Shown piece by piece: positions 11,488 to 13,681 of a stretch of 43,384 bases of DNA. The stretch's first letter is position 1. Every line of letters starts with the position of its first letter. The notes beneath the pieces were generated by a model. It saw only the letters and a program-made list of their open reading frames with translations. It made no database searches and had not been told where the DNA came from. A program made the translations under genes and the position numbers. Source of the DNA: a virus (lineage: Duplodnaviria; Heunggongvirae; Uroviricota; Caudoviricetes); the IMG/VR virus record IMGVR_UViG_2925908680_000005, positions 1 to 43,384 of that record. One strand, 5' to 3'.

Positions 11488-11915
11488 AAAGCGCACCTAT
11501 TCTATGGTGGGCTGTGTGGGGGCACCGAAAGGTGCGCCGGGTCCTTTGTAGCCGGTTACGCCAACCCTGCACAGTTCACCACCAACCGATTGGCGTCGGT
11601 AGTGGTGATTAACCTAACTACAAAGGTGATCACTATGACTGCTAACGTAACCCCATCTGTTTTTCATTTTGAATCAGAAGCAACCATTCGAGCCATTGTT
11701 ATTGATGGAAATCCTTGGTTTGTTGCCAAAGACGTTATTAAAGCTCTTCAACTGACAAACCCCACTATGTCAATAAAATCTCTTGATGATGATGAAAGGG
11801 CTAAATTTAACTTAGGCCGTCAAGGCGAAACCAATATTATCAACGAGTCAGGCCTCTACACACTGATCCTCCGCTGCCGCGATGCAGTAACACCAGGCAC
11901 TATCTGGATTTGCCC

Positions 11916-12821
11916 CTATATTTCCAGACATCTGTTATCACTTAACCCATTACAAGCCCGCTGCCGCAGATATTCCCGTGGCGAGCGATAACCCAGCGCA
12001 CTATGCGGATGCCATTCGTTATAATGCTCGAACGCCTCTGCAAGGTTCTTTGCTGCCGTTAACCCGTCTGGTTTGGGCATGATACTGATGTAGTCACGCT
12101 TTATCGTTTTCACGAAGCTCTCTGCTATTCCGTTACTCTCCGGACTCCGCACCGCCGTGTTCTTCGGTTCAAGTCCCAACATCCGGGCGAACTGGCGTGT
12201 TTCATTAGCCCGGTAGCATGAACCATTATCCGTCAGCCACTCCACTGGAGACGACGGAAGATCGTTGCCGAAGCGGCGTTCCACCGCTCCCAGCATGACG
12301 TCCTGTACTGTTTCACTGTTGAAGCCGCCGGTAGTGACCGCCCAGTGCAGTGCCTCACGATCACAGCAGTCCAGCGCGAACGTGACACGCAGTCTCTCTC
12401 CGTTATCACAGCAGAACTCGAACCCGTCAGAGCACCATCGCTGATTGCTTTCTTTCACGGCCACTCTGCCTGTATGTGCCCGTTTCGATGGCGGTACAGC
12501 AGGTTTTCGCTCAAGCAACAGCGCATTCTGGCGCATGATCCGGTAAACACGTTTGGCATTGATCGCAGGCATACCATCAAGTTCTGCCTGTCTGCGAAGC
12601 AGCGCCCATACCCGACGATAACCATACGTGGGCAGCTCTCCGATAACATGGTGTATACGGAGAAGCACATCCGTATCATCAGTGTGACGACTGCGGCGGC
12701 CATCCATCCAGTCATCGGTTCGTCTGAGAATGACGTGCAACTGCGCACGCGACACCCGGAGACAACGGCTGACTAAGCTTACTCCCCATCCCCGGGCAAT
12801 AAGGGCGCGTGCGCTATCCAC
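11916..12821 (-). CDS. insD: IS2 transposase OrfB (InsD)
   Basis: 301 aa, IS3-family integrase-core transposase. Confidence 0.9.
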
Positions 12822-13144
12822 TTTTTTGCCCGTCCATATTCAACGGCTTCTTTGAGGAGTTCATTTTCCATCGTTTTCTTGCCGAGCAGGCGCTGGAGTT
12901 CTTTAATCTGCTTCATGGCGGCAGCAAGCTCAGAGGCAGGAACAACCTGTTCTCCGGCGGCGACAGCAGTAAGACTTCCTTCCTGGTATTGCTTACGCCA
13001 GAGAAATAACTGGCTGGCTGCTACACCGTGTTGCCGGGCAACGAGGGAGACCGTCATCCCCGGTTCAAAGCTCTGCTGAACAATTGCGATCTTTTCCTGT
13101 GTGGTACGCCGTCTGCGTTTCTCCGGCCCTAAGACATCAATCAT
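12779..13144 (-). CDS. insC: IS2 OrfA (InsC) HTH protein
   Basis: 121-aa product starting [13 protein letters not shown]; overlaps OrfB as in IS3-family elements. Confidence 0.85.
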
Positions 13145-13681
13145 CTGTTCTCCAATGACTAGTCTAAAAACTAGTATTAAGACTATCACTTATTTAAGTG
13201 ATATTGGTTGTCTGGAGATTCAGGGGGCCAGTCTACTATCCCCTACCGCTTTCGTAAATGGGTTACAGGTGAGGTACTTCCTCAGATCCGCCGCACCGGA
13301 AGTTACATTAAAAACTCGCTCCCGCAGGAAGAACGGATAAAGATGGTTGCCGACCAGGTAGCCAACGCCACGGCGTCAGCAGTGATGCAGGCGATGAAGA
13401 TAGAGAACAAAACCTACAGCGCCCCACTGAAGCCAGGCTACCGCAGCCTGATTCACTCGCCGTCTGGTGTTCTCGGCCTGACGGAGAACTCACTGCTGAT
13501 GAATCTGCTGAACCAGTTACAGGACGACGGGCACGACGTATCGGGCGCGGCGGCGGAGTTGACCACCATATTCTGCTACATCGTCGGTGTGAGCAAATGC
13601 CTGCGTGATATCCAGACGCACGCGGAGTACATCAACGACAAAGCAGGGTTCTTCTGACGGGCGGTGGCATTCGTTAAAACA

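Follow-up and report, generated by a model that had tools for sequence, protein, structure and literature searches.

An IS2 insertion within a Bro-N antirepressor gene of a phiV10-like Escherichia coli prophage that retains a second, putatively SOS-responsive antirepressor

Introduction

What does a temperate phage lose when an insertion sequence (IS) enters its antirepressor gene? The question is raised by a 43,384-nucleotide stretch of DNA from a virus of the Caudoviricetes (Duplodnaviria; Heunggongvirae; Uroviricota), namely positions 1–43,384 of IMG/VR record IMGVR_UViG_2925908680_000005 (called the window below), in which the insertion sequence IS2 is lodged in a gene for a Bro-N domain protein of a phiV10-like (Uetakevirus) prophage of Escherichia coli. 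A preliminary description of the locus had read the insertion as separating the Bro-N domain from the C-terminal domain of an antirepressor, with impaired antirepressor function and perhaps impaired prophage induction as the consequences. From the analysis reported here, the locus is very probably a recent IS2 knock-out of an accessory antirepressor, by which an input to the lytic switch gated by small RNAs (sRNAs) would have been lost and the SOS-driven input kept.

Results

A full-length IS2 flanked by a duplicated target

The element occupies 11905–13235 on the minus strand and, by comparison with annotated IS2 copies, is full length at 1331 bp. Read on the minus strand, it starts with TAGACTGGCCCCC and finishes with GGGGCAAATCCA, and its ends form imperfect terminal inverted repeats of 41/42 bp (IRR, 11905–11946; IRL, 13195–13235), with about 30 of the 42 positions identical in an end alignment containing one gap. 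Copies annotated as 'IS3-like element IS2 family transposase' match it with 99.9% identity over 100% of its length, and the difference from one annotated copy is a single synonymous base change at 13028, in the third position of insC codon 39. Both transposase reading frames on the minus strand are intact, that is, insC (orfA; 121 amino acids (aa), 12779–13144, ATG at 13144) and insD (orfB; 301 aa, 11916–12821, containing the rve domain), and the A6G slippery motif AAAAAAG at 12821–12827 marks the site of the –1 frameshift between them; the IS2 copy that differs by one base carries a 'programmed frameshift' annotation. Pfam searches with the called genes gave HTH_Tnp_1 (in insC), HTH_21, rve, and rve_3. 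Since insC and insD are open, the A6G motif is present, and the ends align, the copy looks transposition-competent.

The pentanucleotide CTATC stands on both sides of the element (11900–11904 and 13236–13240, from reading the junctions against intact alleles), an arrangement with a chance probability of 1/1024. A single CTATC is found at the insertion site in the intact alleles of E. coli 2015C-4498, phiV10, and vB_EcoP_ZX5 (hereinafter ZX5), all of which read GGCACTATCCCCTACCGC, and removal of IS2 together with one CTATC copy from the window yields GGCACTATCCCCTACCGC, identical to these three uninterrupted alleles. Thus, the full-length element with recognisable terminal repeats and the CTATC duplication, as given in the preliminary description, were both upheld by alignment.

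The interrupted gene and the fragments left by the insertion

In-silico excision of IS2 and one CTATC produced an in-frame open reading frame (ORF) of 687 nt encoding 228 aa, in agreement with the single ORF of about this length that had been described before. Its product shows 98–99% identity to intact proteins of the same length, which are named BRO-N domain-containing or anti-repressor protein. Compared with the allele of E. coli 2015C-4498, the restored ORF shows nine nucleotide differences, six of them synonymous, and neither a frameshift nor a stop codon. The sole oddity in the alignment with intact homologues, in which no other disabling mutation was seen, is M200I (ATG to ATA) at codon 200 of the restored ORF (listed at window 13832–13834), which is unique to the IS2-bearing allele; among 95 homologues, this position is M in 94, L in 1, and I in 0. 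The substitution has no obvious disabling effect and could have arisen either before or after the insertion; it may be a sign of relaxed constraint.

In the window as it stands, the gene is divided on the plus strand into a 5' fragment comprising codons 1–90 (11635–11904; ORF reading and Pfam) and a 3' fragment comprising codons 91–228 and the stop codon (13241–13657), the latter encoding the end of Bro-N and an Ant-like domain. The 5' fragment runs into IS2 as far as a stop at 11991, giving a 118-aa product made up of 90 native and 28 IS-derived residues, in which the Bro-N domain lacks its conserved last helix. The Ant-like domain now lies behind 1.3 kb of IS2 transcribed in the opposite direction, cut off from the promoter and the ribosome-binding site, and a consensus scan of IS2 for an outward promoter-like site facing the 3' fragment found none. 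The allele is almost certainly null, with Bro-N truncated and the Ant-like domain deprived of both promoter and ribosome-binding site. As no plus-strand gene lies between the Bro-N gene and a G+C-rich terminator-like hairpin at 13682–13699, the insertion should be free of polar effects.

Distribution of the interrupted allele

The window is 100% identical to the 5.17-Mb complete chromosome CP024997.2 over the 20 kb compared. The junction-specific fusion product (118/169 aa) was found on nine contigs from independent assemblies, namely CP024997.2 and eight further ones, some being short-read contigs with ends inside IS2. Every sequence with this junction shows at least 99.99% identity to the window; the carriers thus form one clone, and the interruption represents one recent IS2 event within it. 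The interrupted allele was absent from the complete RefSeq E. coli genomes of the searched set, and no IS-interrupted copy occurred among the matches listed for a spread sample drawn from the 470 matching complete E. coli genomes, where all listed copies were annotated as protein-coding. An exact search for the left junction in contigs representing one genome per species gave no match.

The insertion lies inside Bro-N, upstream of an Ant-like domain

On the restored protein, Pfam Bro-N (PF02498) covers residues 18–104 with a score of 72.3 bits against a cut-off of 25.6, and distant homologues from many phages align only as far as residues ~112–117. IS2 sits after residue 90 and thus cuts the domain itself, removing PYRFRKWVTGEVLPQIR, the most conserved and nearly invariant stretch of Bro-N. 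The earlier claim that the insertion separates Bro-N from the C-terminal domain therefore fails.

No Pfam match was obtained in the C-terminal part of the restored protein. Residues 147–223, on the other hand, match chain E ('Anti-repressor protein') of PDB 5D50, the Rep–Ant complex of Salmonella phage SPC32H (genus Uetakevirus), with an E value of 2e-13, and the C-terminal domain is 41% identical to a small Ant encoded next to the interrupted gene. Judged by these matches, the C-terminal part is a paralogue of the small Ant of SPC32H. Given this homology and the presence of a Rep homologue in the window, there are good grounds for the label 'antirepressor', which applies to the C-terminal domain, located downstream of IS2. 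The former identification of a Bro-N antirepressor gene was thus substantiated, also in view of the lowered lysogeny on overexpression of the ZX5 orthologue (see below). The predicted structure of an intact homologue with 99% identity is poor (mean predicted local distance difference test score (pLDDT), 54.5; C-terminal half, < 50), and the domain claims for the interrupted protein rest on sequence matches.

The last ~90 codons, encoding the Ant-like domain (within 13241–13657), also occur in other E. coli prophages fused to other N-termini, with 93–94% nucleotide identity; these fusions, for example a 300-aa protein (L001, 21938–22840), are annotated 'phage antirepressor Ant', 'antA/AntB antirepressor family', or 'ORF6N domain'. 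This distribution suggests that the Ant-like domain is a shuffled repressor-targeting module.

A second, intact antirepressor and its presumed target

The small ant gene (11066–11322, plus strand) lies 313 bp upstream of the interrupted gene and encodes an intact 85-aa homologue of SPC32H Ant and phiV10 p24. The protein is 98.8% identical to p24 and gives one 83-residue match to chain E of 5D50 with an E value of 1.4e-46. The gene occupies the position of SPC32H ant, between the tailspike/tail fibre gene and the injection-protein operon. It is preceded, 20 bases before the start codon, by a LexA box, TACTGTATAAATATACAGTT (11026–11045, with CTGT-N8-ACAG at 11028–11043), which matches 18 of the 20 consensus positions and occupies the corresponding position in SPC32H, phiV10, ZX5, and E. 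coli 2015C-4498. Kim and Ryu are said to have found, in 2013, that the SPC32H Rep is not cleaved in the SOS response and is inactivated instead by the LexA-controlled Ant. A review agrees in general terms with a LexA-controlled antirepressor inactivating an uncleaved repressor. These likenesses indicate that the small Ant is the primary, SOS-responsive antirepressor of the prophage, and that it is intact. Most E. coli Uetakevirus records (phiV10 p24, ZX5, and TL-2011b) list it only as a 'hypothetical protein'; in SPC32H, it is annotated as ant.

The presumed target of both antirepressors is the Rep repressor, a 194-aa helix-turn-helix protein (38895–39479, plus strand) that is 99.5% identical to phiV10 p40 and matches chain A ('Repressor') of 5D50 with an E value of 3.5e-42. 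Pfam gave HTH_3 only for Rep, and no S24 peptidase domain. In the SPC32H complex, an Ant tetramer binds two Rep dimers and thereby breaks up the DNA-binding Rep tetramer (PDB 5D50). With an intact small Ant behind a conserved LexA box and an intact Rep, SOS induction of the IS2-bearing prophage would probably be retained.

The RNA leader of the interrupted gene

Between the two antirepressor genes, all on the plus strand, a promoter-like site TTTACA-17-CATAGT with TG (11370–11398; consensus scan only) is placed to start an isrK-family sRNA with an intrinsic terminator (11405–11481; Rfam RF01394, 74.7 bits against a gathering threshold of 50), whose terminator-like site was located at 11462–11475 by consensus scan. 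It is followed, in the leader of the Bro-N gene, by a C4-family antisense RNA (11500–11586; Rfam RF01695, 79.5 bits against a gathering threshold of 45). A candidate C4 target stretch at 11590–11626 was recognised from two exactly complementary words, one of 7 and one of 9 nt: the C4 segment 11558–11564 is complementary to 11590–11596 (7 nt), and the large C4 loop CCTTTGTAG (11543–11551) is exactly complementary to 11618–11626 (CTACAAAGG), overlapping the Shine–Dalgarno sequence. We infer from these features that C4 and isrK gate translation of the Bro-N gene in the present phage. No CTGT-N8-ACAG box was found for the interrupted gene in 11323–11634, the sole nearby box being that before small ant. 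The occurrence of the same isrK-C4 pair before the non-homologous anrP gene in Gifsy-1 makes the leader look like a portable cassette.

The stretch 11482–11634 is open from an ATG at 11482, in frame with the Bro-N gene, and many automatic calls on intact alleles accordingly give a 279-aa protein. This reading was rejected as a conserved start, because the stretch encodes the C4 RNA and because the upstream frame of ZX5 forms an ORF of its own (37 aa, 'ash family') that ends before the gene; the N-terminal extension is probably not real.

Surroundings of the locus within the prophage

The terminase, portal, capsid, tail, injection, lysis, replication, and Rep genes are full length and 90–100% identical to those of phiV10, and what the window contains of the prophage otherwise looks functional. 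Differences from phiV10 were noted at several places. Where phiV10 has p21, between the Bro-N gene and the injection-protein operon, the window carries a 137-aa minus-strand ORF (13715–14128), probably a moron, whose product begins with a lipoprotein-like sequence (…LISAC…) and matches nothing in Pfam or PADLOC. An Acyl_transf_3 protein (7425–8540) gave no tblastn match to phiV10 Oac, and the tail fibre (8542–10869) matches phiV10 in the first 227 residues only; the host-range/O-antigen-modification module (7425–10869) is swapped relative to phiV10. RecE-like (DUF3799, 273 aa) and RecT (322 aa) proteins are encoded by two overlapping ORFs in different frames (40084–41843), whereas phiV10 has a single 586-aa fusion, so that there is probably a frameshift in either the window or the phiV10 record. 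The prophage also carries a tRNA-Arg gene (anticodon TCT; 30544–30620) between its terminase and portal regions, and so does the related prophage of E. coli 2015C-4498.

Positions 1–5382 are outside the prophage and form the head of a guaA-associated genomic island, which in other E. coli (99.98% identity) directly follows guaA; it encodes a tyrosine integrase (3873–5108) and the Gabija proteins GajA (1863–3824) and GajB (1–1866), with PADLOC E values of 5e-238 and 6e-215, respectively. The core of the phage attachment site (attP) of phiV10 and ZX5, ATTGAGTGGGAATGATT, gave no match in the window with up to three mismatches. A copy of the core with a one-base deletion was noticed at ~5370–5384, where a hybrid attachment site, ATTGAGTGG-AATGAT, places the prophage and the island in tandem at one bacterial site (attB). 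The integrase of the prophage itself must be encoded past the right-hand end of the window.

Discussion

How the insertion would act on the lytic switch

Collectively, the results point to one recent transposition event, in which IS2 entered a 228-aa accessory gene of a phiV10-like prophage after codon 90 and duplicated CTATC. In the intact gene product, Bro-N forms the N-terminal part and a paralogue of Ant the C-terminal part, and binding by Ant would inactivate the non-cleavable Rep repressor. The intact gene would be transcribed from the isrK promoter through the C4-containing leader, in which the C4 loop is complementary to the ribosome-binding site. By truncating the protein inside Bro-N and stranding the Ant-like domain, the insertion would create a null allele, and with the LexA-boxed 85-aa Ant and Rep both intact, the lytic switch would lose only its second, sRNA-gated input.

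Several points weigh against this account. Binding of Rep by the C-terminal domain is deduced from 41% identity to Ant, and the account of the present strain as a whole is drawn from sequence. The evidence from ZX5 comes from overexpression and not from a knock-out (PMC9782041). A 104-aa C-terminal fragment may be produced at a low level from an internal ATG at 13343. Moreover, the C4-leader duplex of –45.9 kcal/mol falls within ~2 standard deviations of shuffled leaders; as the duplex energy is not clearly beyond that of the shuffles, the pairing of C4 rests on the two exact words and on the precedent of P1 and APSE.

Alternative explanations

The reading of the preliminary description, in which two domains of the prophage's antirepressor are separated and induction is impaired, is improbable as a whole. 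The Bro-N gene is indeed disrupted, its ZX5 orthologue favours lysis when overexpressed, and induction must go through some antirepressor, as Rep has no autocleavage domain. However, the insertion is inside Bro-N and not between domains; an intact Ant under LexA-box control, of the type characterised by experiment in SPC32H, is encoded 313 bp upstream; SPC32H has no Bro-N module; and the phiV10 copy is frameshifted in a phage that is still viable and temperate. Thus, loss of the gene itself stands, and an effect on induction is weakened by the intact Ant and Rep and by the relatives that do without a working copy. A further reading takes the Bro-N protein not to be an antirepressor of the present Rep at all, and gives it another role, such as DNA binding that affects the host or competing phages, or trans-acting anti-immunity against other prophages, so that its knock-out would be irrelevant to the phage's own switch. 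In its favour, Bro-N domains have an unsettled biochemical role, the phiV10 GenBank record DQ126339 names the gene 'putative anti-immunity protein', and P22 ant mutants stay SOS-inducible according to the review. We give this reading little credence, since the C-terminal domain has clear homology to an antirepressor whose crystal structure was obtained together with a homologue of the window's Rep, and only 2 residues differ between ZX5 and the window in the C-terminal two-thirds. The ZX5 Rep is reported to be identical to that of phiV10 (PMC9782041), to which the window's Rep is 99.5% identical, and overexpression of ZX5 ORF4 reduced both repressor transcription and lysogeny (PMC9782041).

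Selection by the host could also have favoured the insertion, by lessening spontaneous, SOS-independent induction and stabilising a useful prophage, a scenario mechanistically compatible with the accessory knock-out preferred here. It is consistent with the spontaneous release of ~10^7 plaque-forming units (PFU)/ml by lysogens of ZX5, in which the orthologue promotes lysis (PMC9782041), with the growth arrest brought about by the isrK-C4-gated antirepressor of Gifsy-1 (PMC4825925), with the persistence of the interrupted allele in several assemblies, and with M200I, absent from all 95 homologues, which would fit relaxed constraint after inactivation. Nevertheless, we regard it as rather unlikely: carriers that are at least 99.99% identical make up one recent clone, in which persistence may be hitch-hiking; there is no sign of recurrent inactivation, no IS-interrupted copy having been seen among the matches listed for the spread sample from the 470 genomes; and one substitution is not evidence of selection. 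Finally, IS2 is a multi-copy repeat (related copies in 4902 of 5426 complete E. coli genomes, at a median of 4 places per genome having any), and repeats can be misplaced during assembly. The chance that the present copy is such an artefact is nonetheless close to nil, because the junction fusion protein is encoded by a complete chromosome as well as by independent assemblies, among them short-read contigs ending in IS2, and the 5-bp duplication of a single-copy target is perfect.

Significance

IS knock-outs of accessory prophage genes are commonplace, and the present event is an ordinary one confined to one clone. Its value is modest: together with the phiV10 frameshift, the accessory knock-out offers a natural mutant for asking what the Bro-N::Ant-like protein adds to the LexA-gated switch, candidate roles being spontaneous or stress-specific induction and cross-talk with other prophages. 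A by-product of somewhat greater interest is the pair of antirepressors sharing an Ant-like domain, one under LexA and the other under an RNA leader. We tentatively raise the possibility that E. coli Uetakevirus prophages have a two-input lytic switch acting on one Rep, comprising the LexA-gated small Ant and an isrK/C4-gated Ant-like 'warhead' (~90 aa) with an exchangeable N-terminal domain; if this were true, the IS2 allele would be a natural mutant uncoupling the SOS-independent input. No paper was found that links the Bro-N 'anti-repressor' of ZX5 and phiV10 with SPC32H Ant in the literature covered, which did not include the two primary SPC32H papers. As to annotation, the 85-aa 'hypothetical protein' would be the primary antirepressor in E. 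coli prophages of the phiV10 type, and naming the Bro-N gene as 'the' antirepressor is incomplete.

Comparison with known systems

As an insertion, the element is unremarkable among those of IS2 (IS3 family) in E. coli genes and prophages, with which it shares length, terminal repeats, insC/insD with the A6G motif, and the 5-bp duplication; the target gene alone is peculiar to the present clone. As a switch, the locus is close to that of SPC32H, a phage of the same genus, which has in common with the window a Rep homologue and an 85-aa Ant with the same position and LexA box. The interrupted gene differs from this system in that its Ant-like domain is fused to Bro-N and stands behind isrK/C4, without a LexA box of its own. 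SPC32H is without any isrK-C4-Bro-N module, and epsilon15 likewise has only one Ant-like place. In phiV10 (19551–20230), a 16-bp frameshifting deletion in the Ant-like part splits the Bro-N gene into p23 (194 aa) and p22 (29 aa). The lack of the module in SPC32H and the frameshift in phiV10 show the Bro-N gene to be dispensable for a viable temperate phage.

Functional data exist for ORF4 ('anti-repressor') of ZX5 (PMC9782041), an orthologue at the same locus and behind the same isrK/C4 leader. Over their whole length, ORF4 and the restored protein share 81% identity, and from residue 70 to the end just 2 positions differ; ORF4 is set apart by being intact and by its first 70 residues, which are another Bro-N variant. 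Its overexpression lowered lysogens from 10^9 to 10^6 PFU/ml (~1000-fold) and repressor mRNA by 75% (PMC9782041).

The RNA leader has counterparts in more distant systems. In Gifsy-1, isrK-orf45-anrP (PMC4825925) shows the same succession of isrK and a C4-family element before an antirepressor gene, and differs in that the window's upstream frame continues in frame into the Bro-N ORF, with no overlapping stop. Homology of the restored protein to Gifsy-1 AnrP (STM2616) was considered and rejected (BLASTP E value, 4.4). In APSE phages, the isrK and C4 pair has been described upstream of a BRO-N gene. The immI region of P1 and P7, in which the c4 antisense RNA acts on ant, shares with the window a C4-family RNA in the antirepressor leader, on the same strand, and a C4 loop complementary to the downstream ribosome-binding region; the window has no icd-like gene between C4 and the antirepressor, and repression by C4 would operate here by analogy with P1 and P7.

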